NCBI GenBank assembly: GCA_964549685.1
Contig: CAZJVE010000003.1
Location: 17,706 to 81,705, forward strand
From: an uncultured archaeon
GTDB taxonomy: Archaea > Altiarchaeota > Altiarchaeia > IMC4 > QMZM01
Reading direction: 5' to 3'
DNA length: 64,000 bases
Position numbers and translations under genes: made by a program. Every line of letters starts with the position of its first letter. Position 1 is the first letter of the stretch. The notes beneath the pieces are model-generated. The model was not told where the DNA came from. It saw nothing but the letters and a program-made list of their open reading frames with translations, and made no database searches. Below, piece by piece: positions 8,540 to 25,553 of the stretch.

Positions 8540-8683
8540 ATGGCATTTGAACTATTCACGATATCGATAGGGGTAGGGATCTTATCTGGAGCCATAATAA
8601 ACATCTCCCTGGGATACAAATTTTACGACAAGGGTGGTCTGCTGGGAGGCCTTGCAGTGGGCCTTATGATGGCGGTACTCTAG
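8540..8683 (+). CDS. Mini membrane protein, 47 aa (below the ORF-track cutoff)
   Basis: Hand translation: MAFELFTISIGVGILSGAIINISLGYKFYDKGGLLGGLAVGLMMAVL. Two hydrophobic, glycine-zipper-like helices. 3 nt after the transporter stop. Paralogous to the next ORF. Confidence 0.6.
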   Translation: MAFELFTISIGVGILSGAIINISLGYKFYDKGGLLGGLAVGLMMAVL

Positions 8684-8684
8684 A

Positions 8685-8840: not shown

Positions 8841-8842
8841 AA

Positions 8843-9322: not shown

Positions 9323-9325
9323 AAA

Positions 9326-9931: not shown

Positions 9932-9932
9932 G

Positions 9933-10286
9933 ATGACAAGGATAACAGAAGTAACAAGAACTGGGAAGAGGGGAAAGATTGCGGTATTCTTCCTTATAGC
10001 GGCAGTCCTGGGTCTTGGTCTCCTGCTGGTGGAAAAAGACGCCAGCAAATTCAATGCCCAGTGCCCGAGGGATTACTTCTGCGATAACAAATGCCCCGTG
10101 GATGCAATATCTCTCGACGAGCACGGGTTCCCCCAGATTGACAAGAGCGTATGCCTGTCATGGGTCCCCGAGAAAGATGAATTCGATTGGGATAAGTGCG
10201 GCCTGTGCCTGCAGGGGTGCCCTACAAGAGTCATAGATTTGCTGAACAGTGATTTTGAAGAAAGGGAAAAACACACGTTGAATTAA
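9933..10286 (+). CDS. Single-pass membrane-anchored ferredoxin-like protein with degenerate Cys motifs
   Basis: Basic N-terminus 'TRTGKRGK', helix 'IAVFFLIAAVLGLGLLLV'. 'CPRDYFCDNKCP' (central Asp replaces Cys) and 'CGLCLQGCP'. Confidence 0.6.
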   Translation: MTRITEVTRTGKRGKIAVFFLIAAVLGLGLLLVEKDASKFNAQCPRDYFCDNKCPVDAISLDEHGFPQIDKSVCLSWVPEKDEFDWDKCGLCLQGCPTRVIDLLNSDFEEREKHTLN

Positions 10287-10287
10287 G

Positions 10288-11112
10288 ATGGATGAAAAGG
10301 AGGAAAACCCAAAGAAGGAGAATAATGGGGTGAATCAGAAGAAGCTCAGGAAGGCTAGCCAGGTCCTGGTGTTGATTCTAGTCCTGGTCCTAACTTATTT
10401 GGTATACAGCGTGGCATTCTCTGTCTGCTGGCTGGACCCGATGTGGCACCTACAGGCATTGTTCGCTAACAGGTTTGATACAGGTACGGATACGTACTTC
10501 ATGGAGGGGCTGACGAGAATTTTTGTCCCTTCCGTCCTCATCCTTGGGGCCTTCGTATTCCTTGCAATACTTTTCGGTAGGATATTCTGCGGCTGGTTCT
10601 GTCCGTTTGGAACCATGCTCGATTACATAGAGGGGATAAGCCCGTTCAGAGGGAAGCTTCATTTCCCAAGAGAGCTTAAAGACCCGGGCATAAAGTATTC
10701 AATACTCATAGGTTTCCTAATCCTTTCCCTTATGACGTCGCAGGAGGCCTTCTGCGAATTCTGTCCTGCAGGCACCGTATTAAAGGGGCTTACGGGGCAT
10801 GTAATCTTCCTCTCGATTCCCGTCTTTATAGTGACCCTGTTTATCGTCCTCTTCTACGGAAGAAAGACGTGGTGCTCCTATCTCTGCCCCTTGGGGGCGT
10901 TCTTTGCACTCTTTACCAGATTCCACCTTTTCGGAATCAGAGCAAATAAGGAGGATTGCGTAAAATGCTTCATGTGCGACAAGGCATGCCCTATGGACGT
11001 CCTCGTAGTTGAGAAGTACATCCAAGAGGGTAAAAAAATAAACGACCCCGAATGCATCAAGTGCATGGATTGCGTTGATGCGTGCCCAAGAAAGATACTA
11101 AAGTTTCCGTAA
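10288..11112 (+). CDS. NapH/MauN/NosR-like integral membrane polyferredoxin
   Basis: Membrane-embedded 'CGWFCPFG' and 'WCSYLCPLG' (CxxxCP) motifs. C-terminal canonical 2x[4Fe-4S] motifs 'CVKCFMCDKACP' and 'CIKCMDCVDACP'. Confidence 0.8.
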   Translation: MDEKEENPKKENNGVNQKKLRKASQVLVLILVLVLTYLVYSVAFSVCWLDPMWHLQALFANRFDTGTDTYFMEGLTRIFVPSVLILGAFVFLAILFGRIFCGWFCPFGTMLDYIEGISPFRGKLHFPRELKDPGIKYSILIGFLILSLMTSQEAFCEFCPAGTVLKGLTGHVIFLSIPVFIVTLFIVLFYGRKTWCSYLCPLGAFFALFTRFHLFGIRANKEDCVKCFMCDKACPMDVLVVEKYIQEGKKINDPECIKCMDCVDACPRKILKFP

Positions 11113-11113
11113 A

Positions 11114-11902
11114 ATGGTAGCATACCAGTTCATAACATCGGGAATAGCATCCATGTTGATACTGACTCCGTTAGCCATGATACTGTACATGGTTCTCAGG
11201 GACAAGGGGGCTGCCGTCCTCTGCATGGAGTGTCAGCAGTGCAGGGCCGTGTGTCCCGTAATTCGGGCCCATGACAGTTATGCAGGGCCGAAGGACATAA
11301 TGGTTGCCGTAAAATCCGGTAAATACGACCTGGCCCTGCAGGGAAACGCCGAATTATGCGCCTCCTGCGCCGCATGCACGGAGCGTTGTCCGAGAAAGCT
11401 GGGAGCAGACGAGGAAACAACAGGTATAGTATCAGCAGAAATGGAGGACATATTCGGCAGGGATACGATAAAATACATGGAGGGAATCCCCAACCCAAAG
11501 ATGCAGCGAACCTATGAGGCGGTTATCAGAAGATTTGAGGGTAAGAAAACGGGCCTTCCATGGGACTGGGTAACCAAGAGTACACGGCTCAGGAAATTTT
11601 ATAATCCAATAGAGGACAAGCCGATGAAGGCCCAGATTAAGACACAGATTCCCGAGGCCGGGATGTCCCTTCTCACAGCAAAAGCAAATCTTTTCGGGGA
11701 AACTCCCCCCGAGCCGAAAGAGAGAGAAACTCCATCCGAAAGAGAGGCCGGGTTCGCAAAGCCGGATGGGGAGAAAACGTGTGAGATGGAAACGGAGAAG
11801 TCAAAACCTGCTGAACCCGTGGTGAAAGAAAAACCTGGTGAAGGGGAAGCAAAACCTGAGGAAAAATCTGAATCCAAAGAACAAAATGGCGGAGAAGTTT
11901 GA
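11114..11902 (+). CDS. HdrC-like 2x[4Fe-4S] subunit with N-terminal TM anchor and long E/K/P-rich C-terminal tail
   Basis: Helix 'ITSGIASMLILTPLAMILYMVL'. 'CMECQQCRAVCP' ... 'CASCAACTERCP' with a helical spacer, as in HdrC and SdhB C-terminal domains. Last ~90 aa are low complexity: 'PPEPKERETPSEREAG...KPGEGEAKPEEKSESKEQ'. Confidence 0.7.
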   Translation: MVAYQFITSGIASMLILTPLAMILYMVLRDKGAAVLCMECQQCRAVCPVIRAHDSYAGPKDIMVAVKSGKYDLALQGNAELCASCAACTERCPRKLGADEETTGIVSAEMEDIFGRDTIKYMEGIPNPKMQRTYEAVIRRFEGKKTGLPWDWVTKSTRLRKFYNPIEDKPMKAQIKTQIPEAGMSLLTAKANLFGETPPEPKERETPSEREAGFAKPDGEKTCEMETEKSKPAEPVVKEKPGEGEAKPEEKSESKEQNGGEV

Positions 11903-12659
11903 GATACCGGAACGGCTGATATTTTTCGAGGGATGCACGACCTCAAGGCTATTGAAGGAGATGAGACTCGCAACCTATGTAATCCTGGAGAGGGCAGTCG
12001 AGAAGGGAATCATAAAGGAGTACACGGTTCTCCCGAATGAGAGGTGCTGCGGTTATGCCTCGATGGTGATGGGGGACTTCAAGAACCAGAATAAATGCCT
12101 TATCTTCAACCTGGACCAGATGACACGGCTCGGGATAAAGGATGTGTTCTTTACATGCGGGGCATGCACTCACTTCATGGGCGACTCTCCCGAATTCAGG
12201 GCACGGGGTTTCAGGCCGATAAACATCATGGAGTTCCTGTATGCATTGATAAAGAACGGGCAGTTTGACAAGCTGATAGATAGGAAGCTCCCGAAAGGCT
12301 TCAAGATTACAGGCCATTATTCATGTCATCTGAGAAGGCTCTCAGGATTGAAGATGGATGAACTTTATAAGGAGATTGCAAACGCCCTGGGGGCAGAGTA
12401 TGTTGAGATGCCCGATGCAACGGATTGTTGCGGGGCCGGCTCGGAGGGTAAGGTGGCAATAGAGATTGCAAAGAGGAAGGTTGAGAGCGCTGACAAAACC
12501 GATGCAGATATATGCCCACTGGCCTGTGCGGGCTGCGAAGCAATTCTAAGCATAGTCTCGAAGCAGAGTAAGAGCAAAACGAAATTTACCTCGCTGTCGA
12601 CTGTAATCGCGAGTTGTATGACAGACCTTGATAAAAGGATTGAAAAACTAAATAAATAG
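11886..12659 (+). CDS. HdrB-like protein with two CCG cysteine-rich domains
   Basis: 'FFEGCTTS...ERCCGYAS...FTCGACTHF' and 'HYSCHLRR...DCCGAGSE...CPLACAGCE' match the C..CCG..CxxC pattern twice, as in the canonical HdrB at 18410..19249. ATG at 11886 (MAEKFEIP) overlaps the previous gene by 17 nt. Confidence 0.8.
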   Translation: MAEKFEIPERLIFFEGCTTSRLLKEMRLATYVILERAVEKGIIKEYTVLPNERCCGYASMVMGDFKNQNKCLIFNLDQMTRLGIKDVFFTCGACTHFMGDSPEFRARGFRPINIMEFLYALIKNGQFDKLIDRKLPKGFKITGHYSCHLRRLSGLKMDELYKEIANALGAEYVEMPDATDCCGAGSEGKVAIEIAKRKVESADKTDADICPLACAGCEAILSIVSKQSKSKTKFTSLSTVIASCMTDLDKRIEKLNK

Positions 12660-12683
12660 GCTATGATGTAAATTCATACCAAA

Positions 12684-13526
12684 GTGAAAGCTATAGAATA
12701 CCTAGTAAAGCTGATGAAAAGTCAGGAGGGCGAGTGGAAGGTAGAGGAGTTGATGACGAAGGAGGTCATAACCATAGAGCCGGAAGCCACCGTCCATGAT
12801 GCCGTTGAGAAGATGAGGAAGTATGGAATCCATGGTATCATAGTTGCAAAAGATGATGATATGCTAGGTATTGTCAGCTATTATGACATTCTTCTCCTGA
12901 TGGCAGGTAGGGAGCATGGGAAAAATGTCAGGGTGGAGGAGATAATGAATACTGACCTGATAACGGTTGATTCTGAAGAGGACATAATGGACTGCCTTGA
13001 GTTAATGCTGAAGAATCACGTCCTGAGATTGCCTGTTTTGGATAGTGGCAAATTAGTGGGGATTATAACAACTACGGATTTTGTAAACGTATTCGACAAG
13101 GGCTTTGATGGTGAGGGGTCTTTCCATGCCAAAAAAAGTCCTGAATTGGTGGCTGAGAACATAATGCATAAGCCAGTTGTAATGATAGAGCCCAACAAGA
13201 GTGTTTTTGAGGCGGCAAAGCTTATGACTGATAAGAACATCGGCTCTCTGGTTATAAACGACAACTGTAAGATTGGAATTGTTACGGAGAGTGACATCTT
13301 TAAGAGGGTCGTTGCCAAGGGCAAGGACAGCAGGAAGACAAAGGTGGGTGATGTTATGACCACCCCTTGCAAGACGGTGGGTCCAGATGCCGATATAATC
13401 GAGGCCAGCAGGATATTCCACGACAACGACATAAGGAGGCTGCCTGTTGTTGAAGACTGCAAGGTTATCGGTATAATGGCAGTCGAGGACATCATAGATA
13501 CCATATCCCTGAGGAGAAGGTTCTAA
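12684..13526 (+). CDS. CBS-domain protein (four tandem CBS motifs)
   Basis: Repeated 'LMTKEVITIEP...', 'IMNTDLITVD...', 'IMHKPVVMIEP...', 'VMTTPCKTVGP...' units with 'RLPV(L/V)' ends. The start at 12684 is GTG. An alternative ATG at 12714 is possible. Confidence 0.85.
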   Translation: MKAIEYLVKLMKSQEGEWKVEELMTKEVITIEPEATVHDAVEKMRKYGIHGIIVAKDDDMLGIVSYYDILLLMAGREHGKNVRVEEIMNTDLITVDSEEDIMDCLELMLKNHVLRLPVLDSGKLVGIITTTDFVNVFDKGFDGEGSFHAKKSPELVAENIMHKPVVMIEPNKSVFEAAKLMTDKNIGSLVINDNCKIGIVTESDIFKRVVAKGKDSRKTKVGDVMTTPCKTVGPDADIIEASRIFHDNDIRRLPVVEDCKVIGIMAVEDIIDTISLRRRF

Positions 13527-13528
13527 AT

Positions 13529-14272
13529 ATGCTCGAGACACTGTTTGAATTTCTGGGGTATGTAACCGAGAATGCCACGTCTTCCGTAACCTGGAGCTTC
13601 GTTGCAGGCTTCCTCTTCGGCCTGACATGCATCCAGTGCGTTCTTCCGATAGCGATTTACGGGGCCAAGGAGAAAAGCGGTAGAAAGGCCCTTCTCTTCG
13701 GGATTCTCTTCAATCTGCCCAGGATGCTCGTCTTTGTAGTTCTGGCAATTCTTGCGGCTGTCTCGATAGGAACAATCCAGAGTCTGGAGTCGACTTCCCC
13801 TACGCTCTTTGCTGCCACATGGGTAGTAACCGGTCTTGTCCTCATCATATTCGCCGCGGAGCTCTTTGGTTTATTCAATATCGACAGGGTTATCGGTGAT
13901 AAGCTGGTTAATATGATGATGCCCCTGTTCAGGCAGAACTTCGAGTCCCACTCCCTCGGAGCGATTATTAGAGGGACTATGTTCAGCATCGCATGCGCCC
14001 TGGAATCCTCGCTGATACTTCTGGGCATATGGGGAATGGCCGTCCTCTCAACAGACAGTCTCTTTGCATTTCTTGCAGTTATGGCCTTTGGTCTGGGGAA
14101 TATAACGTCCACGAGCCTTGCTGCTGCCTTCATGGGCTCGTCCACAAACCTCCTAGAGAACACGACAAAAATTAAAGTAAGAAAGTACGCGGCCTATACA
14201 GGGAGCATAATAATCCTCTATCTCGGGCTGCAGTATCTGATTCTCGGCTCCCTTAGGCTTGGGATTCTGTAG
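13529..14272 (+). CDS. CcdA/DsbD-like six-TM thiol:disulfide electron-transfer membrane protein (putative)
   Basis: About six hydrophobic segments. Cys in TM1 ('LTCIQCVLPIAIYG') and in TM4 ('MFSIACALESS'), the arrangement known from the CcdA/DsbD transmembrane domain. Family assignment made by eye only. Confidence 0.5.
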   Translation: MLETLFEFLGYVTENATSSVTWSFVAGFLFGLTCIQCVLPIAIYGAKEKSGRKALLFGILFNLPRMLVFVVLAILAAVSIGTIQSLESTSPTLFAATWVVTGLVLIIFAAELFGLFNIDRVIGDKLVNMMMPLFRQNFESHSLGAIIRGTMFSIACALESSLILLGIWGMAVLSTDSLFAFLAVMAFGLGNITSTSLAAAFMGSSTNLLENTTKIKVRKYAAYTGSIIILYLGLQYLILGSLRLGIL

Positions 14273-14581: not shown

Positions 14582-15313
14582 ATGGAAATCAGGGTACTGG
14601 AGTATAAGGGCGGGAAGCTGAGTGATGGAGAGCGCAGCGTTTCAGAGGAGAAACTGTTCCATATCCTTGTCAACGAAAAGCACCTCCTTTCCCTGTTCGC
14701 GCTTCCCAATAACCTAGAGGAGATGGTGACCGGTTTTCTTGTCTCAGAGGGAGTTACTGGCTATGAGAATGTCAAGGGGATAAGGAGGGCGAACTGCGAG
14801 CTGTGGGTAAAGACAAGGGAGGATATTCCTGAGTTGAAACCGGAGCTGAGAAGCTCGGGCTGCAGCGGAATTGCGATGTATAAGGCTCCAGAGCCGGTGG
14901 AATCAAAACAGGAATTTAATAGCAAGGTGATTGTGAATTCCCTGGAATATTTCAAAAAAGCTAAGGAGTGGAAAATCACTGGAGGTACTCACTTCGCGGC
15001 CTTAATCTCGGCGGATGGAAGATTTCTGCAGGGTTTTGAGGATGTGGGCAGGCACAATGCCCTGGACAAGGTCATAGGATGGGCCCTCATGAACAATCAT
15101 GGTCTGGCCGACAAATTCGTCCTCTTTACTGGAAGGCTCTCGACAGGGATGGTGATGAAGGCTGCGAGAGCGGGAATACCGCTGCTTGTCTCGAATACCG
15201 CCGTGCTGTATCAAGCCATTCATCTTGCTGAGGAACTGAATATCACGCTGGTTGGATTCGCAAGGGGAGAGGAGTTCAATGTCTACAGCAACCTGTGGAG
15301 AATCGGGAAATAA
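14582..15313 (+). CDS. fdhD: FdhD-type sulfurtransferase for Mo/W-bis-PGD enzymes
   Basis: 'GGTHFAALI', 'EDVGRHNALDKVIGW', 'SGRLSTGMVMKAARAGIPLLVS', 'ITLVGFARG' are hallmark FdhD motifs. Convergent with fwdB, with 1 nt between the stops. Confidence 0.9.
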   Translation: MEIRVLEYKGGKLSDGERSVSEEKLFHILVNEKHLLSLFALPNNLEEMVTGFLVSEGVTGYENVKGIRRANCELWVKTREDIPELKPELRSSGCSGIAMYKAPEPVESKQEFNSKVIVNSLEYFKKAKEWKITGGTHFAALISADGRFLQGFEDVGRHNALDKVIGWALMNNHGLADKFVLFTGRLSTGMVMKAARAGIPLLVSNTAVLYQAIHLAEELNITLVGFARGEEFNVYSNLWRIGK

Positions 15314-15314
15314 T

Positions 15315-16598
15315 TCAGCTCTCTATCTTCTTTATCTCTGCCAGGACCTGCTTCAGGGTGTCCACCGTGGACTTCGTCTCCTTTAACGGCGACTTGGCAA
15401 ACTTTCTGACGCGTATCGGTACGTTGTCCATTCTGTAAAAGGTTCCCTCGCACTCCATCGCGTTCAGGACATCCGGGATGACAACGTTGCTGAGCATGGT
15501 CGTGGGGCAGTGAGCAACCTCAACCGAGATTAGAGGTATGTCTGCGAGATGCTCTATGGCTTCTCTGGGAAGATGGGCCCCCAAATCGGCCCCTACCACA
15601 AGGACCGCATCTACTTCGCCCCTCGCAAGCAGATCAACTGTTGTCGTTTCGCCGGGGTTGAAGCGGGGAATTCTCCTCGAATAGTCCACTCCGAAGGGAT
15701 AGCCCGAGGTCCAGGTCATAATCTGATTGAAACCTGCAACGTTGCTGTGGCCCCTGTTTGCCAGAAGGATGAACCGTGAATAATTGTTTACGTTCTTCAC
15801 GAGGCGCATCGCCTTCTCCAGGTTCCTATACTTTCCAACGGAGCTTGCTATTCCAAGGCCCACGAAAATGACACCGTACTTGCAGGACTTCATCATCTCC
15901 GCGAGCTTCCTGACGGTTTTGGGTGGAACTCCCCCGACTGCCTTGTCTATGTCATGGCCGTTGATTACTGCACCTATGGCTGACATCAGCTCGAAGTCCT
16001 TGTTCGGCTCTATCTGTATGTGAAGGTCGGCAAGTTCCGCGGTTGGGGTCTTTCTTGGGTCCACCACTATGATGGTCCTCTCCTGACCACCGTGCTCCCT
16101 GAAGTAGCCCCGGGGGAACAATGAATAGCGGGATAACAGACGGGGATGCGATTCAATGGGGTTGCAGCCCCAGTATATCAGTAAATCGGCCCTGTTCTTG
16201 ACCTCTCCGAGGGTTGCTGATGGGAGCCCGGCCTCCTGGATGCCGAGGACTGTCGGGCCGTGGCACATTGTCGAATTTCCATCCACCACTCCACCGAGGT
16301 ATTCTGCCATTTCGATTCCGACTCTCATGGATTCCGTAGAAATCTCGCTGCCCATGAAGATTAGCGGCCTCTTTGCCTTGCCGAGAATTTCAGCAGTCTT
16401 TTTGATTGCATCCTTCCAGCCGGCTTTCTTTCCGTCTATTGTTGGAGTCAGGACTCTGTCCTTGTCCCTGAGCTTGTGGTACTTGGCCTCGCCCATGCTG
16501 CATGCATTGTAGACCTTGATATCATCTCTTGTGAGTTCTATGTCTATGTCGTCGCATGCAAGCCCACAGACCGAGCAGGTTATGTCCTTATGCAGCAT
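15315..16598 (-). CDS. fwdB: Formylmethanofuran dehydrogenase subunit B (Mo/W-bis-PGD subunit)
   Basis: 427 aa. N-terminal 'ITCSVCGLACDDIDIE' cluster motif, molybdopterin oxidoreductase-like core. Co-operonic with fwdA, fwdC and fwdD. Confidence 0.88.
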   Translation of the reverse strand: MLHKDITCSVCGLACDDIDIELTRDDIKVYNACSMGEAKYHKLRDKDRVLTPTIDGKKAGWKDAIKKTAEILGKAKRPLIFMGSEISTESMRVGIEMAEYLGGVVDGNSTMCHGPTVLGIQEAGLPSATLGEVKNRADLLIYWGCNPIESHPRLLSRYSLFPRGYFREHGGQERTIIVVDPRKTPTAELADLHIQIEPNKDFELMSAIGAVINGHDIDKAVGGVPPKTVRKLAEMMKSCKYGVIFVGLGIASSVGKYRNLEKAMRLVKNVNNYSRFILLANRGHSNVAGFNQIMTWTSGYPFGVDYSRRIPRFNPGETTTVDLLARGEVDAVLVVGADLGAHLPREAIEHLADIPLISVEVAHCPTTMLSNVVIPDVLNAMECEGTFYRMDNVPIRVRKFAKSPLKETKSTVDTLKQVLAEIKKIES

Positions 16599-17100
16599 TC
16601 AGTTCACCCATGATTTTCTCAGCGAGCTGGTCTCTGTTCTCCTGGTTGATGATGAATTTCCTGAATTCTACGCCGGGGAATTTACTAGTGAATTCCTCAA
16701 GCATTTTCTTTCTGATTACGATGATTACGTCCTTCTCTGTTGCTATTGCCCTCTCGGCTTCTGGAGAGAGGCCGTCCCCTTTCCTTTCGAGAGGGCCTAT
16801 CTCGTCGATGAAGACGAGGTCGGAGCCGTTTTCTATTGAGCAGTGAATTGCTTTTCTGCTAAGGGAAATTCCTTTTTTAGTTATAATATAATTTCCAACC
16901 GGAATCCCCTCTGCCTTTGAGTCCGTTGTTGCCATCTCCTCCTTTTCTCCCGTGGAGAGGTCAATGGCAGTGCTGCCCTCTCCAGCCCCAGGGCAGAGCA
17001 CGCCGCCGCATTTCCTGCCGTTCTCTTCTGCAATCTCTACTATCCTTTCGCAGAGGGTTGTCTTCCCGACTCCCGAAATTCCCGATATGAGTATTTTCAT
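16588..17100 (-). CDS. P-loop NTPase, THEP1/NTPase_1-like
   Basis: Walker A 'GISGVGKTT', Walker B-like 'LVFIDEIGPLE'. 170 aa. Overlaps the fwdB start by 11 nt. Confidence 0.7.
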   Translation of the reverse strand: MKILISGISGVGKTTLCERIVEIAEENGRKCGGVLCPGAGEGSTAIDLSTGEKEEMATTDSKAEGIPVGNYIITKKGISLSRKAIHCSIENGSDLVFIDEIGPLERKGDGLSPEAERAIATEKDVIIVIRKKMLEEFTSKFPGVEFRKFIINQENRDQLAEKIMGELNAA

Positions 17101-17756
17101 ATTCCTTTCACGCCCATGAGCCAGCAGAGCCCTGTGAGAAGGGCTGCAAGCTCGTAGAAGATTCCCGAGCGCACCGCCTTTTTCTGGATTAATGCCATTA
17201 TGTCTCCCGCCCTGTAGCCGGCCATTACTGTAACCGCTGATAGCAGGGCGGCCTGCGTTCCGTCAGCCAGGATGAAATTCATCATGTCTGTCAGGGACAT
17301 GTTCAGCCAGAATCTCGAGCCAATGCCCAGGTACTTGAAGACCATGCCGAAGCCCATATAGCTGAGGTAGGCGAAGCCCGCTCCTGTGGAGAGGTGGTTT
17401 ATTATCGGTGCTTTTATCCTGTGCGTTACAGTAAGGACGGCGCCGAAGGCCATTGCCTCTATCAGTATGGAAATCATCGGCCTGAATACCATCGGGCTGG
17501 GGCCGACTATGAAGATGTCAAATCCTTTCAGGAGTGAGGCCACAGCACCAATGCCGAGCAGGAATCCTATCCTGTTACTCGGCCGGTATGTTCTCAGGGC
17601 CGCTGACATGAGGAACGCGCCGAGGGAGAACATTATCGCTCCCTTGAGCATGAAGTGAATCATGTGCAGGAATACGCCAAGCGTGGCCTCAAACATTCCC
17701 CAGATTGAACCGAATAGTAGAATTCCAATCAGTATTTGTTTTTGTTTTTCATCCAT
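17097..17756 (-). CDS. Polytopic membrane protein (hypothetical)
   Basis: 219 aa, 6-7 hydrophobic segments ('ILIGILLFGSIWGMFEATLGVFL...'). No family recognised. ATGA overlap with the NTPase gene, and 1-nt gap after fwdD. Confidence 0.6.
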   Translation of the reverse strand: MDEKQKQILIGILLFGSIWGMFEATLGVFLHMIHFMLKGAIMFSLGAFLMSAALRTYRPSNRIGFLLGIGAVASLLKGFDIFIVGPSPMVFRPMISILIEAMAFGAVLTVTHRIKAPIINHLSTGAGFAYLSYMGFGMVFKYLGIGSRFWLNMSLTDMMNFILADGTQAALLSAVTVMAGYRAGDIMALIQKKAVRSGIFYELAALLTGLCWLMGVKGI

Positions 17757-17757
17757 T

Positions 17758-18156
17758 TTAATCGCCTCTCAAAATTTGTTTTTTCATCAGGTTCTCGCAG
17801 TCCAGGACAGGGTCATCCGTGCCTTCAACCTTGGCCTCCATCCCCTTGTAGAACGGGGAGCCCGAGTCAAAGGTTTCGGAGCTGATGACCATATTGGCCC
17901 AGAGGCCCCTTGGAATAAAGGCATGGCCCTTCTTCACCCCGGGGTCTGATTTCGCATGGACAGTGACAGAGCCCGACTTTGTCTTTACCTTAACGTTCTC
18001 CAGGTAGGAACCCTTTCGGTACCATACTCTCTTGAAGTCTTCGGGGTTGAGGCTGCAGAAAGCCGCCTCCTTGGTGTATTGGGGAGTCATCTTCTTTCCG
18101 CCCTTCGTTACCTTGCCCTGATTTATGGTCGAGGCTGTATTCAGGATGACTTTCAT
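17758..18156 (-). CDS. fwdD: Formylmethanofuran dehydrogenase subunit D
   Basis: 'MKVILNTASTINQG', 'AFCSLNPEDF', 'VKVKTKSGSVTVHAKSDPGVKKGHAFIP' (molydop_binding beta-barrel). ATG at 18156 overlaps the stop of the upstream ferredoxin gene (ATGA). The 37-aa track extension to 18267 is rejected. Confidence 0.85.
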   Translation of the reverse strand: MKVILNTASTINQGKVTKGGKKMTPQYTKEAAFCSLNPEDFKRVWYRKGSYLENVKVKTKSGSVTVHAKSDPGVKKGHAFIPRGLWANMVISSETFDSGSPFYKGMEAKVEGTDDPVLDCENLMKKQILRGD

Positions 18157-18428
18157 TCTTCTTTTTCCTCCTCCGCAGGAATTTCCTCCCGGACAAGCTC
18201 GCCCTCGGCCAGAATTTTTATTGCCTCCAGGGGACATACCTCCATGCAGATTCCACAGCCGGTGCATGGGGCATCGAACTCCGCCATGGCCTTGACTATC
18301 CTTATGACGCTACCGCTGTCGCCGATGCCATATCCTGCCTTGGTTGAGAGCGATGCTGAATTTGGACAGGCAACAACGCAGTTCGCGCATCCTATGCAAA
18401 GGTCCTTGTCTATTTTAACCCTAAACAT
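18153..18428 (-). CDS. 2x[4Fe-4S] ferredoxin (FwdG-like)
   Basis: 'CIGCANCVVACP' and 'CTGCGICMEVCP'. 91 aa with an acidic tail. Confidence 0.8.
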   Translation of the reverse strand: MFRVKIDKDLCIGCANCVVACPNSASLSTKAGYGIGDSGSVIRIVKAMAEFDAPCTGCGICMEVCPLEAIKILAEGELVREEIPAEEEKEE

Positions 18429-19249
18429 TTTTTTATCAGGCTTTCTGCACTTATCTGATGATACTGAACCCCCAACTCATTGGGATGGAAGCCAAATGCA
18501 ATTGCAATGAGCTCGGGGTAGTAAAAAACTGGGAGTTCCATCCCGAGTCTCTTCTGGGCCAGTTCGTACTGGAGGAAACATAGCGGACAGGGGGTGCAAA
18601 GTGCATCCGCCCCTGATTCCTTCAGCTCGTTGAGCTTTAATTCAACAAGGTCGTTTGCTACCTCCTGGTCGACTGCCGCAAGGGCTGAACCGCAGCATAA
18701 GTCCCTGTGAGGGTATTCGACAACCTCCAATCCTATCATTTTTACCAGGTCGTCCATCCGTTCAATGCAGTAATCCATTACCTTGGACGGCCTCTGGATG
18801 TGGCAGCCGTCATGGATTGCGACCTTCATCTTCATGGGGAACTGGATTAATTCTCTGGCCCTGTCAATGTTCTCGTGGATGAAATTCACTATGTGCCTGA
18901 CATCGTTTTTGCCCTCGTAGCTCAGGCCTATCTTCTTGAGTTCCTTGTTGACCTCGTTCCTCTTCTTCTCGTCCTGGAGTAAATGCTTCGCATCCAGTAG
19001 TGTGCCGCTGCAGCCAGAGCAGAGCGCTATTATGTCGAGGTTCTCCTTCTCTGCGAGGGCGAGGTTCCTTGCCGCTATCGCAAGCCAGGTTTCCTCATCC
19101 ATTGACTTCATGTGGGTGTTTGGGCAGCATGAAAACTCCAGGTATCTGGGTTCAACCCCCAGTTTCTTCAATACCTCTACCGATGCCTTTTCAAGCCATG
19201 GTAGCTTCGCAGGGATGAAGCATCCTGTGAATAGTGCATGGGGTTTCAT
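18410..19249 (-). CDS. hdrB: Heterodisulfide reductase subunit B
   Basis: 'LFTGCFIP...FSCCPN...LCSGCSG' and 'IHDGCHI...LCCGSAL...CTPCPLC', i.e. two CCG domains. 279 aa. Confidence 0.9.
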   Translation of the reverse strand: MKPHALFTGCFIPAKLPWLEKASVEVLKKLGVEPRYLEFSCCPNTHMKSMDEETWLAIAARNLALAEKENLDIIALCSGCSGTLLDAKHLLQDEKKRNEVNKELKKIGLSYEGKNDVRHIVNFIHENIDRARELIQFPMKMKVAIHDGCHIQRPSKVMDYCIERMDDLVKMIGLEVVEYPHRDLCCGSALAAVDQEVANDLVELKLNELKESGADALCTPCPLCFLQYELAQKRLGMELPVFYYPELIAIAFGFHPNELGVQYHQISAESLIKKCLGLK

Positions 19250-19710
19250 TCTGTCTTGATTTTGGATAGTTTCTTCAGGTCCTCGGGCCTTGGCTTCTTT
19301 ATCTCCTCAAGCTTCAGTTCCTCCCTCCACCGGGCTGCCCGCCCTATTATCGGGAGGACAAGGCCGTCCTTCACTATTGTCGCTGCCAGGGATTTTATCC
19401 TGCCAGGACACTGATGGCCCGATTCACGGGCGTGATTCCTTGCTGCTATGAAGAGCTCGTCCGGGTCGACTCCCTTGGGGCACATCTCAGAGCATGAATG
19501 GCATGTTGTGCATAACCATAGCTGGTCCGAGTCAAGGACTTCCTCATCTTCAATGAGGAGCCTATATATGGTCTTCCTCGGGGAGTGCTCCTCCCGGACA
19601 TAACCTATCGGACAGACAGAGCCGCATTCCCCGCACTGGAGGCACTTGCCCATTATCTTCTCCGACTCCTCTTCTATGAGCTTCCTGAACTTACTCTTCC
19701 TTTTTTCCAT
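19246..19710 (-). CDS. hdrC: Heterodisulfide reductase subunit C
   Basis: 'CLQCGECGSVCP' ... 'CTTCHSCSEMCP'. ATG at 19710 (MEKRKSKF). The track start at 19728 is TTG. ATGA overlap with hdrB. Confidence 0.88.
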   Translation of the reverse strand: MEKRKSKFRKLIEEESEKIMGKCLQCGECGSVCPIGYVREEHSPRKTIYRLLIEDEEVLDSDQLWLCTTCHSCSEMCPKGVDPDELFIAARNHARESGHQCPGRIKSLAATIVKDGLVLPIIGRAARWREELKLEEIKKPRPEDLKKLSKIKTE

Positions 19711-20296
19711 CCTTGTCGAAATTCTCAAGCTTTATCTCACCGAGGAACTTCTCCCTCAGCCTTTTCATTATCCTGGTTTCAGGGTCCTTTTTGCAGACAA
19801 TCTTGATTCTCTTAAGCGCTATCGCACTGGAAGGGCATCCAAGAGCGCAGGCGCCGCAGTAGGTGCATTTGTCAAGGTCAATCTCCACCTCCTTGGTAAT
19901 CTTTATCGCATCCTCCCTGCAGAGAACCTCACATACATCACAGAGCTTGGGGCATTTTTCCTGTTCGACTGAAATCTTGCCCTCGAATTCCATCTCCTTG
20001 GGAATTCCTTCGTTCTCGACTATAAGGATCCTCTCCTCGCCGTTTATCATTGTTTTGAATGCCTTTTTGATGCAGATTGCTGCGCAGACTCCGCAGAGAA
20101 CGCACTTGTCCTTGTCGAATTTCAGGGGTGGTTCTGAAATGTCCTCTTTTACCGATGCGCCTATCGGGTTCAGCTCCAGGGCCTCTTTCGGACACGCCTG
20201 AACGCAGAGAGCGCATCCGTTGCACTTCTCCCCGTCATAGAGCAGCTGGACCCTTTCCTGCCACATCTCGATTGACTTTAACTCCTCGTGGGTCAT
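19691..20296 (-). CDS. Polyferredoxin, four [4Fe-4S]-type motifs (FwdF/MvhB-like)
   Basis: '[12 protein letters not shown]', '[11 protein letters not shown]', '[12 protein letters not shown]', '[12 protein letters not shown]'. ATG at 20296 (MTHEE) overlaps the hdrA stop (ATGA). Confidence 0.8.
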
Positions 20297-22713
20297 TTTA
20301 TCGCGCCCTCCTTTTTCAGCTTCTCCAAGGTGCTGGTTAATTCTTTCATGAGTCCTGCGAATTCCGCTCCCTCGGAGGCTGATATCCATGCGAGCCTGAA
20401 TCTTCGTGAATCGATGCCCTTCTCCTCCAGGGCCTTTTCATACTTGTCTATTCTCTTCTCGCACTCGAAGTTTCCTGAAATATAATGGCAGTCGTGCAGG
20501 TGGCAACCAGTAAGTGCAACAATTCCGGCCCCCAGCTCCAATGCCCGGTCTATGAATTTGGTAGCTACCCTTCCGGAGCACATGACCCTTATTACGCGAA
20601 GGTTCTCGGGGTATTTGAATCTGGAGACTCCTGCCGTGTCCGCTCCTCCATAGGAGCACCAGTTGCATAGGAATCCAAGGATTTTGTCCTGGGGATTCTC
20701 TTTCAGTGCCGCCTCTATCTGGGAGAATATCTGCTCGTCGGTGAAGCCCCGCTGCTGCAATGCATCCTTGGGGCAGATGGCAACACAAGTGCCGCAGCCC
20801 TTGCAGGCGGCAGGGATTATCTCCACGGGCTTGCCCTTCTCGTGCCTTATTGCGCTGTAGGGACAGTACTTGGCGCATAAACCGCAGCTTATGCAGAGCT
20901 CCGGGTTTACCTCCGCTATGATTGAGTCGGGTTCAACGAAACCCCTGCTCATCGGGATTGCGGCTCCTGCTGCCGCGGCTCTTGCCTGTGATACCGATGC
21001 GGGAATGTCCTTGGGTCCCTGGGCAGCTCCGGCAAGGAATACGCCGTCCGTCGGAGTATCGACAGGCCTCAGCTTTGGGTGGGCCTCCATGAAGAACCCG
21101 TCTCCTGTGCAGGAGATGTTCAGCTTTCTCTGGAGCTCCTTTGCGTCATCGGTTGGCTCAGCCCCTGAGGAGAGAATTACCATGTCCAGCTTCATCTCCT
21201 TAATCTTTCCGGAGAGGGTGTCATCAACCCTGATTATAAGTTTGCCATCCATGTCCTGTATTACATTAGAGGGCCTTCCGCGGATGAATTTCACGCCCTT
21301 GTTCCTCAGCCGCTCATAGAACTCCTCGTAGTCCTTTCCGAATGAGCGGACGTCCATGTAGAATATGTAGATGTCCAGGTCGGGATACTTCTCCTTGAGC
21401 TGGGTTGCGTGCTTCATCGCATACATGCAGCAGAAGTTCGAACAGTAGGGGTTTTCCTCGTTCCTTGAGCCGACGCACTGGATGATGCCCACGCTCTTCG
21501 GCTTCTCACCGTTCTTCAGGGTTACCTTGCCCTGCGTTGGGCCTGAGGCGTTGATAATTCTCTCGAAGTCGATTCCTGTAAGGACGTTATCGTATTTGCC
21601 GTAGCCGTATTCTCCCGTAGCATCGTGGTCCTTGAATCCAGTGGCGGCTATTATCGTTCCGACCTCCAGGTCTATTATCTCGTCCTCCTGGTCGAAATCC
21701 ACGGCTTCCCTTTCGCAGACCTTCTCGCAGAGGCCACATTCTATGCACGAGTCCTTGTCTATCGTCGCTGTCAACGGAACCGCCTGAGGGAAAGAGATGT
21801 AGCAGGCCTTTCTTGGTCCCGTGCCCCTGTCGAATTCGTTCTTGCAGATTACGGGGCATACCTCCCAGCACTCGCCGCAGCCGTTGCAGTCCTCGTTGGT
21901 ATAGCGGGCCTTCTTCCTCACCTTCACACTGAAATTCCCGATGTAGCCCTCGACGCTCTCCACCTCCGAATATGCCAGTAACTCTATGTTCGGGTGGTTG
22001 CCGACATCTGACATTTTAGGACCAAGGATGCAAATGGAACAATCTATTGTGGGGAAAGTCTTGTCCAGCATCGCCATGTGCCCTCCGATAGATGGGTTCT
22101 TCTCAACAAGGTATGTTTTGAATCCCATATCCGCCAAATCCAGTGCTGATTGAATCCCTGCAACTCCGGCCCCTATGACGAGGGCCTTCTTAGTTACGGG
22201 GGAGCGTATCTTCGGCAGGGGCATGAGGTGCCTTGCCTTTGACACGGCCATGGCGACCAGGTCCTTTGCCTTCTCTGTTGCCTTGGCCTTGTCCTCATGG
22301 ACCCATGAGCAATGCTCCCTGATGTTAGCCATCTCGAACATGTACCGGTTCAGGCCAGCCGCTTCTATGCACTTTCTGAAGGTCGGTTCATGAAGCCTTG
22401 GAGAGCATGATGCTACGACGACCCTGTCGAGGTCAAGCTCCTTTATGTCCTGCTTTATCTCCTCCTGTCCAGAGTCGGAGCAGGTGTATTTGTTTTCCCG
22501 GGCTATTACGACGCCGTTTAGCTTGGAGGCGAATTCAGTAACGGCCTTGCAGTCGACCACCGAGGCGATGTTAAGGCCGCAGTCGCAGACATAGACGCCA
22601 ATCTTTGGCTTCTCCTTGCCAGTGACAAGGTGTCCTTTATGTACGGGGATGTCCCCTATTGAGAGCTTCGGGCCCTTTTTAGCCTTCTTCGATGTAGATT
22701 TCGCCTTTGCCAT
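20293..22713 (-). CDS. hdrA: Heterodisulfide reductase subunit A fused to a C-terminal MvhD/FlpD-like domain
   Basis: '[19 protein letters not shown]', FAD motif '[17 protein letters not shown]', and ferredoxin motifs '[12 protein letters not shown]', '[12 protein letters not shown]', '[12 protein letters not shown]', '[12 protein letters not shown]'. The C-terminal ~140 aa, '[15 protein letters not shown]...RVMCSGRV...GCHLHDCHY', form an MvhD-type domain. ATG at 22713 overlaps fwdC by 35 nt. Confidence 0.9.
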
Positions 22714-23419
22714 TCTCGGACAGGTCACCTATATATTTATTGCCTTCCTTTTTGAAGGAGGGAAGCATTTCCTCCGCCTTGCCTTTTATCGTGATTCTGC
22801 CGGCCTCCATCTCGGCCCCGGCTCTTGCTCCAGAATTCCCATCGACGATGATTTCACCGTCCTGCATCCTGAAGCCCAGGAACTGCCCGGCATTGCCATG
22901 AACGGAAATCTTCCCCCCAAGCATGCATGTTCCAAGGTTGTCTCCGACGTTGCCGTGGATTATTATCTCCCCGGCCTTCATGCCCTTCCAAGCGCCCCTG
23001 TAGGCGGAGCCGATGAAGTTTCGAGCGTTGCCTTTGATTTCTATCCTGCCGTCTTTCATCTCCATCCCGGCCCAGGAGTCGGCATTCCCTTCCACCATGA
23101 TTTTGCCGCCACTCATTCTGGAACCGAGGTGCATTCCCACATTGCCCTTGACCAGAATTTCCCCGCCAGTCATTGCCTGGCCGATTCTTTTGACCCTAGA
23201 GCAGTCACCCTCTATGACTATTTTTATTTCAGTGGATTTATCTGACTTTTCCCCATGGATGTCGAAGTACCTGCCCAGCTTCCCGGCCTGGTTGCCCGCA
23301 TAGACGTTCATGTCTTCTATCTCCTTCATGGTCTTCCCTGCGAATTTATCGGGTGAGATGCAGTCGGCTTCCAGCCCCGTTGACGGGATTTCCTTTGCCC
23401 TCAGTATTATTTCAGCCAT
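22679..23419 (-). CDS. fwdC: Formylmethanofuran dehydrogenase subunit C
   Basis: Repetitive beta-helix 'G(N/D)xGxxxGxxMxGGxIxVxGN' units as in FwdC and the GltB C-terminal domain. 246 aa. Confidence 0.88.
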
Positions 23420-25040
23420 TTGTCTTCACCTCCACCGGATTTGGGAGGTACTCCATGCCGACCCCATAGTTCCCAACGTTCACTGTATAGTATAGGAATC
23501 TCTTCCTGATGTCCTCTTCTATGTCGACCTTTACCTTTGGACAGACATAGTAGGTCTTTCCTATCGCTGAATCTACGACCTTTCCGCCCTTCACCACAAT
23601 CTTCCCGTCCTTTATCGTACACGATGCTGAGGAGAATGCCTTCTCTATCTTCTTGCCATCCCTCTCCCCCGGACCGATATCATATATTGCAATGTTTGCG
23701 GGGTTCCCCTCCTTCAGGGAGAGGTCAAGGCCCAGCCTCTTCGCGGGACCAGCTCTGGTCATTATTGCTATTTCCTCAAGAGTTAATTCCCTGTCCAGCG
23801 AACCGAGTCCAGTCCTGCTTGATGCCCACTTGTGGCTTCTTTCCATAGTTCCGTCCCTATACTTTTTACTCATCAGCCAGGCTATAATCTTTGGGTAATG
23901 GGTAAAGACCCCTGCATTTGGATTGTCCGTTGTTATGAAAGCCTGCCAGGGGTTCTTGATTCCTAGAGCGAGCTCGAGCCCGATGGTCCACTGTACCGAG
24001 TTAACGCCGGATTTCCTGCTGTAGTAGTAAGGGACAACGCCGCCGCTGGTTTCATTCTCTACGTCTCCATTGCTCCACTTCTGCCTGTTTATCAGGGAGA
24101 GACCGAATTCAAACGGGGCGTCAGCCGTCATGGTCGTTACATCCCCGTAGACGACCTGACCCAGGTCAATGCTGATGTCCTTATTCCTGTTTACCGCCAT
24201 TGCGAGTTTCTCCGCCCCTGAGCTGAACGTCTTCCATGAGTCCCCGCCATAGGAGCTGAACTGCAGATGCGTAATGTGCAGGGGGGAGAATTTCATCGTC
24301 TTTATCGCTGTTTCAAAGTTCCCAGGATGCCCGAGGTTGTTCGTATGCAGATGCACCGGGTGGGGGAGCTTCAGTTCCCTGTTGATTCTGATTAGCTCCT
24401 TGATAATCTCGGCAGGAGTTACCTCAAAGTATGGTACAGGGTCATCAAGGGATTTGACGTTCTTGCCCCAGCCCCATGCGAAGGTTCCACCGGGGTTCGC
24501 CGCCTTTATACCATAGGTCTTTGTCCTTGAGAGCATCCATGCTATGAGCGATGTTGCCTTTTCCTTCTCTCCCTTGGAGATGTACTCTATGAGCTGGTGG
24601 TTATTGCCAAGGAGGAGGAGACCCAGCTTGTCTATTATTGGGGTATCGATGAATTCCTCATGGGTGTGGATGGCCGTTAATGGAGGAACCGCTGGCTCAT
24701 TCACAGTAGTATAGCCCATCTCCGCATACTTATAGCCGGTTGCCCATGTGCTTGGAACGATAAAACCAGACCCGGCCCTGAATTTGCCCCTTGCCGGAAT
24801 TTCGTTTCCCAGATGGTCCTCAGGCCGGAATAAGCGCCCCATGTTTACCTTGGCCCCTGCGAAATGGGAGTGTATGTCCACACCCCCTGGGAAGACGGCC
24901 TTGCCTGATGCGTCTATTGTCTTTGCATTCTTCTGAGCCTTAGCTGCTATCTTCCCCCCGCTAATGAAGATGTCCTTCTCTTCCCCATTGAGTCCGTTGA
25001 GGGGGTCGAAGACCCGGCCGTTCCTGATTACGAGGTCCAT
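23412..25040 (-). CDS. fwdA: Formylmethanofuran dehydrogenase subunit A (amidohydrolase fold)
   Basis: 'MDLVIRNGRVFDP', 'FPGGVDIHSHF', 'PVHLHTNNLG' metal-binding motifs. 542 aa. Overlaps fwdC by 8 nt. Confidence 0.9.
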   Translation of the reverse strand: MDLVIRNGRVFDPLNGLNGEEKDIFISGGKIAAKAQKNAKTIDASGKAVFPGGVDIHSHFAGAKVNMGRLFRPEDHLGNEIPARGKFRAGSGFIVPSTWATGYKYAEMGYTTVNEPAVPPLTAIHTHEEFIDTPIIDKLGLLLLGNNHQLIEYISKGEKEKATSLIAWMLSRTKTYGIKAANPGGTFAWGWGKNVKSLDDPVPYFEVTPAEIIKELIRINRELKLPHPVHLHTNNLGHPGNFETAIKTMKFSPLHITHLQFSSYGGDSWKTFSSGAEKLAMAVNRNKDISIDLGQVVYGDVTTMTADAPFEFGLSLINRQKWSNGDVENETSGGVVPYYYSRKSGVNSVQWTIGLELALGIKNPWQAFITTDNPNAGVFTHYPKIIAWLMSKKYRDGTMERSHKWASSRTGLGSLDRELTLEEIAIMTRAGPAKRLGLDLSLKEGNPANIAIYDIGPGERDGKKIEKAFSSASCTIKDGKIVVKGGKVVDSAIGKTYYVCPKVKVDIEEDIRKRFLYYTVNVGNYGVGMEYLPNPVEVKTNG

Positions 25041-25139
25041 GTTTTTGGCATGATTTTTCCATATAGATAGCAGAACCCAGGTTAAAATATAGGGTTAGAT
25101 GCTTTATTTGAATAAGCATATCCGGAAAAAAACAAGGAC

Positions 25140-25553
25140 TTACTTGTGCTTCTCTATCTCGCCCTTCTGCCATTCAACTGCAGCTTCGCCCTTCATGAGA
25201 TTGTTCACATCATCAGGGCTGCTCATCTCAATCTTGAATACCCAGCCCTCTCCGTAGGGGTCCTTGTTGATGGTGGTGGGGTCATCATACAGCTTCTCAT
25301 TCGTCGCGGAAACCTTTCCTGAGACCGGGGCAAACATCTTTCCAACCCACTTGCCTGTTTCTATCGTTCCGACCTCGCCGTCCTGGGAAACCTCATCTCC
25401 ATCAAAGGGCATCTCGACATAGCTAACGTCTCCCGCCATCTTCTGCGCAAAGTCCGTAAAGCCAATAGTAGCAACGTTTCCTTCAATCTTCGCCCACATG
25501 TATTCCTTGTGATAATAAAGGTCATCGGGCATATTGTATCCTTCAACGTCCAT
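25140..25553 (-). CDS. gcvH: GcvH-like lipoyl-carrier protein
   Basis: 'YHKEYMWAKIEGNVATIGFTDFAQ', 'GTIETGKWVGKMFAPVSGKV' (Lys aligned with the lipoyl-Lys of E-S-V-K-A), 'DPYGEGWVFKI'. Confidence 0.85.
   Translation of the reverse strand: MDVEGYNMPDDLYYHKEYMWAKIEGNVATIGFTDFAQKMAGDVSYVEMPFDGDEVSQDGEVGTIETGKWVGKMFAPVSGKVSATNEKLYDDPTTINKDPYGEGWVFKIEMSSPDDVNNLMKGEAAVEWQKGEIEKHK

Follow-up and report, generated by a model that had tools for sequence, protein, structure and literature searches.

How does an archaeon that makes no methane obtain the electrons of about -500 mV that are needed for the first step of the tetrahydromethanopterin (H4MPT) Wood-Ljungdahl pathway? The question is raised by a 64-kb stretch of DNA (hereafter the window, to which all coordinates refer unless another locus is named), in which a chain of 11 minus-strand open reading frames (ORFs), running from 25040 to 15315, mixes the genes for formylmethanofuran dehydrogenase (fwd) with those for a heterodisulfide reductase (hdr). 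The locus offers a testable answer. We think it probable that in Altiarchaeota a single transcription unit specifies an electron-bifurcating Hdr module that is wired through a polyferredoxin to Fwd and used for carbon fixation.

Gene content and layout of the operon

The 11 genes are listed here in their order along the chain, with the fused MvhD domain of HdrA on a line of its own. Protein lengths are in amino acids (aa) and overlaps in nucleotides (nt).

23412..25040, minus strand: fwdA, formylmethanofuran dehydrogenase subunit A (amidohydrolase), 542 aa; TIGR03121, 720.5 bits against a cutoff of 392.75
22679..23419, minus strand: fwdC, subunit C (GXGXG repeats), 246 aa; TIGR03122, 274 bits against a cutoff of 131; 8-nt overlap with fwdA
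20293..22713, minus strand: hdrA2, HdrA flavoprotein with a fused C-terminal MvhD, 806 aa; NF040770 (HdrA2), 1128.6 bits against a cutoff of 1100
20317..20691, minus strand: MvhD/FlpD domain of HdrA2, residues ~675-799; Pfam FlpD, E = 6e-45 (residues 683-804)
19691..20296, minus strand: fwdF-like half-length polyferredoxin with four [4Fe-4S] motifs, 201 aa; ATGA overlap with hdrA2
19246..19710, minus strand: hdrC-like, two CX2CX2CX3C motifs (4Fe-4S), 154 aa; 5odc_C match of 73 bits; start uncertain
18410..19249, minus strand: hdrB-like, two complete CCG domains (Pfam CCG, twice), 279 aa; 5odc_B match of 187 bits
18153..18428, minus strand: fwdG-like ferredoxin with two [4Fe-4S] clusters, 91 aa; full-length matches to FwdG (5t5i_G, 9sfi_U) and FmdG (7bkb_L)
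17758..18156, minus strand: fwdD (molybdopterin-binding cap), 132 aa; Pfam Molydop_binding above cutoff; ATGA overlap with the fwdG-like gene
17097..17756, minus strand: membrane protein with about six transmembrane helices, 219 aa; orphan family, fold resembling the S-component of energy-coupling factor (ECF) transporters (weak match)
16588..17100, minus strand: P-loop NTPase (NTPase_1/THEP1-like, DUF2478), 170 aa; PF03266, 96 bits; PF10649, 34 bits
15315..16598, minus strand: fwdB, catalytic W/Mo-pterin subunit, 427 aa; TIGR03129, 565 bits against a cutoff of 328

Family and PDB matches agree with the gene identities and coordinates given in a first-pass annotation of this DNA, which were correct, and an independent gene caller made identical calls for all 11 genes on four Logan metagenome contigs of identical sequence.

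As judged from its sequence, the operon encodes a complete formylmethanofuran dehydrogenase: FwdA, FwdB, FwdC and FwdD, plus a polyferredoxin like FwdF but of half its length and a ferredoxin like FwdG. The curated equivalog cutoffs are exceeded by FwdA, FwdB and FwdC, and FwdA also matches Pfam Amidohydro_3. Aligned to chain 9sw6_J (514 bits), FwdB retains its catalytic cysteine, within NSTMCHGPT, as well as the cysteines of the N-terminal 4Fe-4S motif (CxxCxxxC...C). The tungsten (W)-specific exception models all stayed below their cutoffs, the FwdD model NF042908 giving 84.5 bits (cutoff 175). The best PDB matches of the polyferredoxin were FmdF (7bkb_K) and FwdF (9sw6_H and 5t5i_F), at about 105 bits and over N-terminal halves only. 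It has four clusters versus eight in FwdF, and its score with the FwdF model NF042909 (116 bits) is below cutoff.

The second enzyme is a predicted soluble HdrA2(MvhD)BC, a flavin-based electron-bifurcation module of the heterodisulfide-reductase type. Residues 34-672 of HdrA2 match HdrA of M. thermolithotrophicus (5odc_A, 888 bits), and the MvhD domain matches the free-standing MvhD chains 8rvu_F, 5odc_D and 7bkb_F (about 130-140 bits), with cysteines C683, C686, C712, C737 and C742 invariant in 17 homologues. By analogy, this domain would be the docking module for an external electron donor. The fusion reported in the first pass is real, HdrA core and MvhD domain lying in one polypeptide that passes the NF040770 cutoff. 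It is, however, no special feature of this locus but the widespread HdrA2 (‘type Ia’) type, for which a dedicated NCBI model exists. A search with HdrA2 gave at least 8000 matches at E ≤ 1e-50, in Bathyarchaeia, Hydrothermarchaeales, Asgard lineages and many bacteria. The HdrA2 matches listed from a scan of GTDB genomes with the HdrA alignment were at most 58% identical, came mostly from bacteria and Bathyarchaeia, did not include the lineage of the window, and are usable as an outgroup for synteny; a scan of JGI metagenomes with an alignment of close relatives returned mostly unfused methanogen HdrA, along with two close loci.

In HdrB, all ten cysteines of the CCG domains, which correspond to two non-cubane [4Fe-4S] clusters, are in register with 5odc_B, and these domains would form the disulfide-reducing site. 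Because HdrB (218 bits; TIGR03288, cutoff 345) and HdrC (79.6 bits; TIGR03290, cutoff 160) both score below the equivalog cutoffs for the reductase of coenzymes B and M (CoB-CoM), their substrate is uncertain.

The genes are tightly packed. With the called starts, the junctions from fwdA to fwdD are overlaps of 8, 35, 4, 20, 4, 19 and 4 nt, a single nucleotide separates fwdD from the membrane-protein gene, and the two junctions that follow are overlaps of 4 and 11 nt. The overlaps of 4-35 nt and the 1-nt gap described in the first pass are thus borne out, but its count of ten overlaps is one too high: 11 genes have 10 junctions, which here are 9 overlaps and 1 gap. Two starts have several candidates. 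hdrA could begin at ATG 22713 or GTG 22728, and hdrC at TTG 19728, ATG 19710 or ATG 19653, the last of which would replace one overlap with a 37-nt gap. A neighbouring cluster of the same genome is packed equally tightly (gaps of 1-3 nt). Since such packing is normal for the operons of this genome, the overlaps favour co-transcription but are unexceptional. Shine-Dalgarno-like sequences stand ahead of fwdC (GGAGGTGA), the fwdF-like gene and fwdD (GGAGG), with a weaker one ahead of hdrA.

Two features bound the chain:

25041..25139, minus strand: intergenic region upstream of fwdA, with a candidate terminator for gcvH and a candidate operon promoter, both read from the sequence alone
14582..15313, plus strand: fdhD, accessory sulfurtransferase for the bis-pyranopterin guanine dinucleotide (bis-PGD) cofactor, convergent with the operon; TIGR00129, 190 bits against a cutoff of 141

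Directly past the stop of gcvH lies a run of seven T (25132-25126), and a TATA-like CTATATTTTA is found about 50 nt upstream of the fwdA ATG; the run is likely the gcvH terminator and the box likely the operon promoter. Apart from that run, the sense strand across the operon has a single stretch of at least five T, within hdrB. At the downstream end, fdhD and fwdB converge with their stops 1 nt apart, which leaves no intergenic room for terminators (14582-15315). An Rfam scan of the window found three tRNAs and no match inside the operon. Most simply, the 11 genes would make up one transcription unit with its own promoter. The single-unit organisation put forward in the first pass therefore holds, with nine overlaps and a 1-nt gap inside the chain, boundary signals upstream of fwdA and the convergent fdhD downstream.

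Host, conserved order and predicted electron flow

The window comes from the Altiarchaeota. EF-2, L3, Cdc6, HdrA, HdrB and FwdB belong to clusters of at least 90% identity whose NCBI members are Candidatus Altiarchaeota or Altiarchaeales. The GC content of the window, which includes a cluster of ribosomal-protein and elongation-factor (EF) genes, is ~49%. This is closer to the Alti-2 genome IM-C4 (48.5%) than to Ca. Altiarchaeum hamiconexum (32%) (PMC4500143), and the host resembles Alti-2 in this respect. Altiarchaeota are described as non-methanogens that live autotrophically, fixing CO2 through a modified H4MPT Wood-Ljungdahl pathway (PMC4500143, PMC8407392). The DPANN ancestor is inferred to have lost Mcr, whereas Altiarchaeota kept the Wood-Ljungdahl pathway (PMC13473441, PMC9635834). 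The electron donors and acceptors of Altiarchaeales, in the words of one study, ‘remain unanswered’ (PMC4500143). Li et al. 2021 annotated HdrABC and MvhD in 39% of Altiarchaeota genomes and speculated on sulfur chemistry or on the heterodisulfide of coenzymes M and B (CoM-S-S-CoB), as well as on lateral acquisition (PMC8407392). Our literature searches found no description of a fwd-hdr operon in Altiarchaeota.

The taxon bears directly on what the operon does. The first-pass annotation had seen in it the first and last enzymes of the Wolfe cycle. Because the markers place the host in the Altiarchaeota, a phylum of Wood-Ljungdahl autotrophs described without Mcr (PMC13473441, PMC9635834), this is most probably not a Wolfe cycle, and Fwd most likely serves carbon fixation. 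Taken at its word, the Wolfe-cycle interpretation would make the host a methanogen of the hydrogenotrophic type, in which the operon couples the reduction of CoM-S-S-CoB (the last step) to that of CO2 (the first). Every subunit is indeed homologous to the methanogen Hdr-Fwd/Fmd supercomplex, HdrA2 passes the NCBIfam cutoff for ‘CoB-CoM heterodisulfide reductase HdrA2’, and Li et al. 2021 speculated on CoM-S-S-CoB reduction in Altiarchaeota (PMC8407392). We nevertheless regard a methanogen as extremely improbable: the literature on the phylum portrays Mcr-less Wood-Ljungdahl assimilators (PMC4500143, PMC13473441, PMC9635834), HdrB and HdrC miss their equivalog cutoffs, and the nearest named relatives of HdrB beyond the clade are non-methanogens (Asgard lineages and Bathyarchaeia, 36-44% identity).

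Comparative synteny, proposed as a check in the first pass, was carried out on related loci. The percentage is the identity of their HdrA to that of the window, and polyFd and fd stand for polyferredoxin and ferredoxin genes.

L169, HdrA 93%: the same 11 genes in the same layout, flanked by gcvH (upstream) and fdhD (downstream)
L085 (GCA_030609775.1), HdrA 76%: fwdA-fwdC-hdrA2-polyFd-hdrC-hdrB-fd-fwdD-fwdB, without the membrane-protein/NTPase pair
L086/L087, HdrA 73%: hdrA2-polyFd-hdrC-hdrB-fd-fwdD-fwdB, followed by a regulator, homologues of the membrane protein and NTPase, and ftr
L088, HdrA 70%: ftr-fwdA-fwdC-hdrA2-polyFd-fd-fwdD-fwdB-fwdD-fwdB, without hdrCB
L170 (GC 55%), HdrA 64%: fdhD, then fwdA-fwdC-hdrA2-polyFd-(hdrC fused to hdrB)-fd-fwdD-fwdB, with mfnB near

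With the FwdF-like and FwdG-like genes written as fwdF' and fwdG', the core order fwdAC–hdrA2–fwdF'–(hdrCB)–fwdG'–fwdDB is seen again in five other lineages, with HdrA identities of 64–93%, and the part hdrA2-fwdF'-...-fwdG'-fwdDB is kept in all related loci examined, across a GC range of 39-55%. The spacing of accessions in NCBI Altiarchaeota metagenome-assembled genomes (MAGs) fits the same order (HdrA MBU4341768, HdrB ...771, FwdB ...776). For L085, L086, L088 and L170, exact look-ups in the protein clusters yielded no taxon names, and these loci are only putatively Altiarchaeota. What does not vary is the placement of hdrA2 directly 5' of the FwdF-like polyferredoxin, with the FwdG-like ferredoxin and fwdDB further on; variation affects hdrCB, the membrane-protein/NTPase pair and the place of fwdAC, which in L086 lies 7.5 kb upstream of the hdrA2-fwd cluster. 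At the level of 59% identity, the context is an frhB-like gene plus hdrA2, without fwd.

There are at least two ways to account for this linkage. In the first, Hdr and Fwd would be co-regulated and physically separate: HdrA2BC would reduce free ferredoxin, which would diffuse to Fwd, and the interleaving would be the outcome of operon shuffling. Consistent with this, the order is not rigid, as shown by the displaced fwdAC of L086, the missing hdrCB of L088 and the mobile membrane-protein/NTPase pair, and HdrA2B2C2 of M. acetivorans reduces free ferredoxin according to work cited in PMC12054007 and PMC8407392. We judge separate enzymes unlikely, if worth taking seriously, since the hdrA2-fwdF'-...-fwdG'-fwdDB core occurs in every related locus examined and the FwdF-like polyferredoxin always follows hdrA2 directly. 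It is a polyferredoxin of this kind that bridges HdrA to Fwd/Fmd in all solved supercomplexes, FmdF in class II and FwdF together with VhuB in class I (PMC13518236).

In the second account, which we prefer, Hdr and Fwd would be coupled physically, and such a complex is plausible. Its mechanism is modelled on homology to the solved Hdr-Fwd/Fmd supercomplexes. An external donor would dock at the [2Fe-2S] domain of MvhD and deliver electron pairs to the FAD of HdrA2; candidates are a hydrogenase, an FrhB-like or NfnB-like module, or F420H2 directly, as has been reported for HdrA2 of M. acetivorans. The low-potential electron would leave through the ferredoxin domains of HdrA2 to the FwdF-like polyferredoxin encoded directly downstream, and from there through the FwdG-like ferredoxin to the W/Mo-pterin of FwdBD, where CO2 would be reduced and the product condensed onto methanofuran by FwdA. 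The high-potential electron would travel via HdrC to HdrB, where it would reach the two non-cubane clusters and reduce a disulfide. Because Altiarchaeota are without Mcr according to the literature, the bifurcated electrons would feed the first step of the H4MPT Wood-Ljungdahl pathway, and no methanogenic cycle would be closed.

The same path might also run in reverse, with low-potential electrons from formyl-methanofuran and high-potential electrons from a thiol confurcated onto a mid-potential acceptor in an oxidative C1 or acetate metabolism. In methanotrophic and alkane-oxidising archaea, Hdr complexes can work in both directions (PMC12054007), and other non-methanogenic archaea have an oxidative Wood-Ljungdahl pathway (PMC9635834). 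For this locus we consider the reverse direction very unlikely, as the isotopic and transcript data cited for Altiarchaeota point to autotrophic CO2 assimilation (PMC4500143, PMC8407392). The methanofuran-biosynthesis gene mfnB and the ftr genes clustered nearby in relatives fit either direction and lend oxidation no specific support.

For the preferred, CO2-reducing direction a donor would be needed at the MvhD domain. The scan for one took in a few ORFs below 150 aa and, apart from part of the ribosomal-protein block, every non-overlapping ORF of 150 aa or longer in the window. Neither in these ORFs nor in the operon did it reveal a hydrogenase, an FdhA or a donor of the FrhB/FdhB type. The first-pass observation that the operon has no electron-donor module is upheld for its 11 genes and extends to the scanned ORFs of the window. 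The donor may be encoded elsewhere in the genome.

Several points weigh against the coupled Hdr-Fwd machine that we propose. The association of Hdr with Fwd is predicted from synteny and homology, and the input module that supercomplexes carry on MvhD (MvhAG/VhuAG, FdhAB or FrhB-like) did not appear among the scanned ORFs. HdrB and HdrC are both under the NCBIfam CoB-CoM equivalog cutoffs. The polyferredoxin may span the distance from HdrA to FwdBD, a putative role for a protein of four clusters when FwdF has eight. The operon of L088 is without hdrCB, so the high-potential branch is maybe not obligatory. Finally, the absence of Mcr and of CoM/CoB from this genome is taken from the literature on the phylum, our analysis having covered the 64-kb window.

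A bolder extension of the coupled machine, and as it stands quite unlikely, is a ‘methane-free’ analogue of the Wolfe cycle. Here Hdr-Fwd would drive CO2 fixation by means of a disulfide other than CoM-S-S-CoB, and a syntenic membrane cluster (7172-14272, described below) would reoxidise the thiol and so complete the cycle. The disulfide may be sulfur-derived or protein-bound, the candidates being polysulfide, an organic disulfide, CoA disulfide and lipoyl-GcvH. If true, this would identify the energy metabolism of these abundant subsurface primary producers.

Accessory and neighbouring genes

Two genes of the chain belong to neither enzyme. The membrane protein has no Pfam or NCBIfam match and 17 homologues among 5.8 billion proteins. 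Its AlphaFold2 model (pLDDT 81) gave as best Foldseek match the S-component 5edl, a weak one (E = 0.016, TM 0.53). The NTPase has no PDB sequence match. In L086, a 40%-identical homologue of the NTPase adjoins a homologue of the membrane protein (30%), the pair lying between fwdB (upstream) and ftr (downstream). The convergent fdhD, which flanks the operon in L169 and L170 too, is a probable maturation factor outside the transcript. The most likely role of the membrane protein, the NTPase and FdhD is in supplying cofactor or metal and in maturation, an assignment that we make with low confidence.

Some of the related loci carry additional fwd or hdr genes. In L088 (13265-16649 of that locus, plus strand) there are two tandem fwdD-fwdB pairs, whose FwdB proteins are 47% and 68% identical to that of the window. 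L086/L087 have a second Hdr set (3662-9852, minus strand), divergent from the hdrA2-fwd cluster, which consists of a 1472-aa fusion of a GltD/NfnB-like pyridine-nucleotide oxidoreductase with HdrA, a free MvhD, HdrB and HdrC, and in L087 an additional HdrD-like CCG protein. This second set may be an NAD(P)H-linked partner system.

The gcvH gene (25140-25553, minus strand) is 99 nt upstream of fwdA and has its lipoyl lysine in ETGKW. Its product meets NF002270 and is far below the cutoff of TIGR03077 (‘not_gcvH’); no other glycine-cleavage genes were found in the window. In L088, a gcvH of 79% identity is next to the ftr-fwd cluster on the opposite strand, and gcvH is absent near the operon in L085, L086 and L170. 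Membership of gcvH in the operon was considered and rejected, given the 99-nt gap with its run of seven T and TATA-like box and a linkage that is not kept in relatives. A GcvH-type lipoyl gene beside the operon recalls the LbpA of sHdr systems. The sequence does not support GcvH as an LbpA-type sulfur carrier, the models calling it a canonical H-protein, and we keep this role as a speculative lead only.

A plus-strand cluster at 7172-14272 opens with a 454-aa duplicated membrane protein that has PCGR and AASCGPSPLGG repeats, no Pfam match and a transporter-like character. It continues with small ORFs, a 159-aa Cys-motif protein, a NuoI-like Fe-S protein and a Fer4 protein, then with a NapH-like membrane Fe-S protein, an HdrC-like protein with one transmembrane helix and a CCG (HdrB/LdhH-like) protein, and ends with a four-CBS-domain protein and a 247-aa CIQC-motif membrane protein, possibly CcdA/DsbD-like. 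We see in this cluster a possible membrane system for thiol/disulfide or sulfur handling. The part of the cluster from the NapH-like to the 247-aa protein adjoins the fwd-hdr operon in L169, and its part from the 454-aa to the CBS protein adjoins the operon in L088. Directly upstream of it in the window are genes for a NifS-like cysteine desulfurase and NifU (5155-6700, plus strand), and at the window start is one for a ThiF-family protein (24-845, minus strand).

Elsewhere in the window, the EF-2 gene (52938-55133, minus strand) encodes 731 aa, compared with 1272 aa for proteins of its 90%-identity cluster from sister Altiarchaeota MAGs; this difference suggests an intein in the relatives that is absent here. 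Between the EF-1alpha and EF-2 genes is one for a 1112-aa protein with PPC, MAM-like and IPT/TIG domains (49137-52475, minus strand), which is probably secreted or on the cell surface. A tRNA match at 39193-39304 (plus strand) spans 112 nt for a model of 71 positions, so this tRNA gene probably has an intron.

Comparison with known systems

The subunits of the window match the chains of the M. hungatei Fdh-Hdr-Fmd complex (7BKB, class II), which comprises HdrABC, MvhD, FmdABCD, the bridging FmdF and FmdG. Unlike 7BKB, the window has MvhD fused to HdrA and a polyferredoxin of four clusters rather than eight. Its fwd and hdr genes are intermingled instead of forming separate blocks, with no FdhAB or MvhAG near, and its host is a non-methanogen for which CoM-S-S-CoB is doubtful as the acceptor.

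Gene clusters of Methanomicrobiales and Methanocellales resemble the window in having hdr and fwd together. The first-pass view that methanogens usually keep fwd and hdr in separate operons does not agree with this: co-clusters are known in Methanocellales, Methanomicrobiales and Methanococcales, and one has been published for Methanocella conradii (PMC12054007). We also saw a Methanoregulaceae locus (L039) with the order polyFd-hdrC-hdrB-hdrA-fwdD-fwdB-fwdA-fwdC, a Methanocaldococcus locus with hdrA-fwdB and another archaeal locus with hdrA2-fwdA-fwdC.

HdrA2B2C2 of M. acetivorans shares the HdrA-MvhD fusion and likewise has no hydrogenase attached; F420H2 is its reported direct donor (PMC12054007). 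In contrast to the window, no catalytic fwd genes lie in the Methanosarcina operon, and what the enzyme produces is reduced ferredoxin in free form; the HdrA of the window is ~49% identical to Methanosarcina HdrA2. In Methanolobus and Methanosarcina loci (L030 and L032), a polyferredoxin follows hdrA2 as it does here. An FwdB-like protein (~35% identity) is encoded ahead of hdrA2 on the opposite strand in both, a layout that matches the catalytically dead ‘Molybdop’ cluster of Lyu et al. 2025 (PMC12054007).

The 8-MDa Hdr-Vhu-Fwd super-assembly of M. maripaludis (9SFI) and Mvh-Hdr-Fwd (9SW6) channel bifurcated electrons to Fwd through polyferredoxins, as we propose for the window. These class I assemblies differ in needing the VhuB/MvhB polyferredoxin and a [NiFe] hydrogenase, neither of which is present here, and in having MvhD/VhuD as a separate subunit. 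The Hdr-like complexes of non-methanogens (Bathyarchaeia, Asgard, sulfate reducers, and the sHdr-LbpA sulfur-oxidation systems of bacteria and archaea) are similar in that HdrABC-type proteins occur in organisms without CoM-S-S-CoB, with a disulfide substrate that is not known or is protein-bound. We know of no description of such non-methanogen systems embedded in a fwd operon.

Hdr-Fwd coupling, the co-clustering of hdr and fwd, and the HdrA2 fusion were thus known already, and what is new is their context and layout. What sets this locus apart is that its host is no methanogen, that fwd and hdr are truly interleaved, that FwdF is of half size and MvhD fused, and that no donor module was seen in the operon or the other scanned ORFs. 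Besides the question raised at the outset, the locus sharpens a second one, namely which disulfide pays for the CO2-reduction step in Altiarchaeota, abundant CO2-fixing primary producers of anoxic subsurface waters. The answer bears on how the coupling of Hdr to Fwd is related in evolution to methanogenesis: it may have been left over from a methanogenic ancestor, acquired laterally (Li et al. 2021), or be an older device for carbon fixation. Even if it should prove ordinary, the operon would keep its appeal for structural and heterologous work as a small, minimal Hdr-Fwd unit without a donor, with MvhD fused and FwdF halved.

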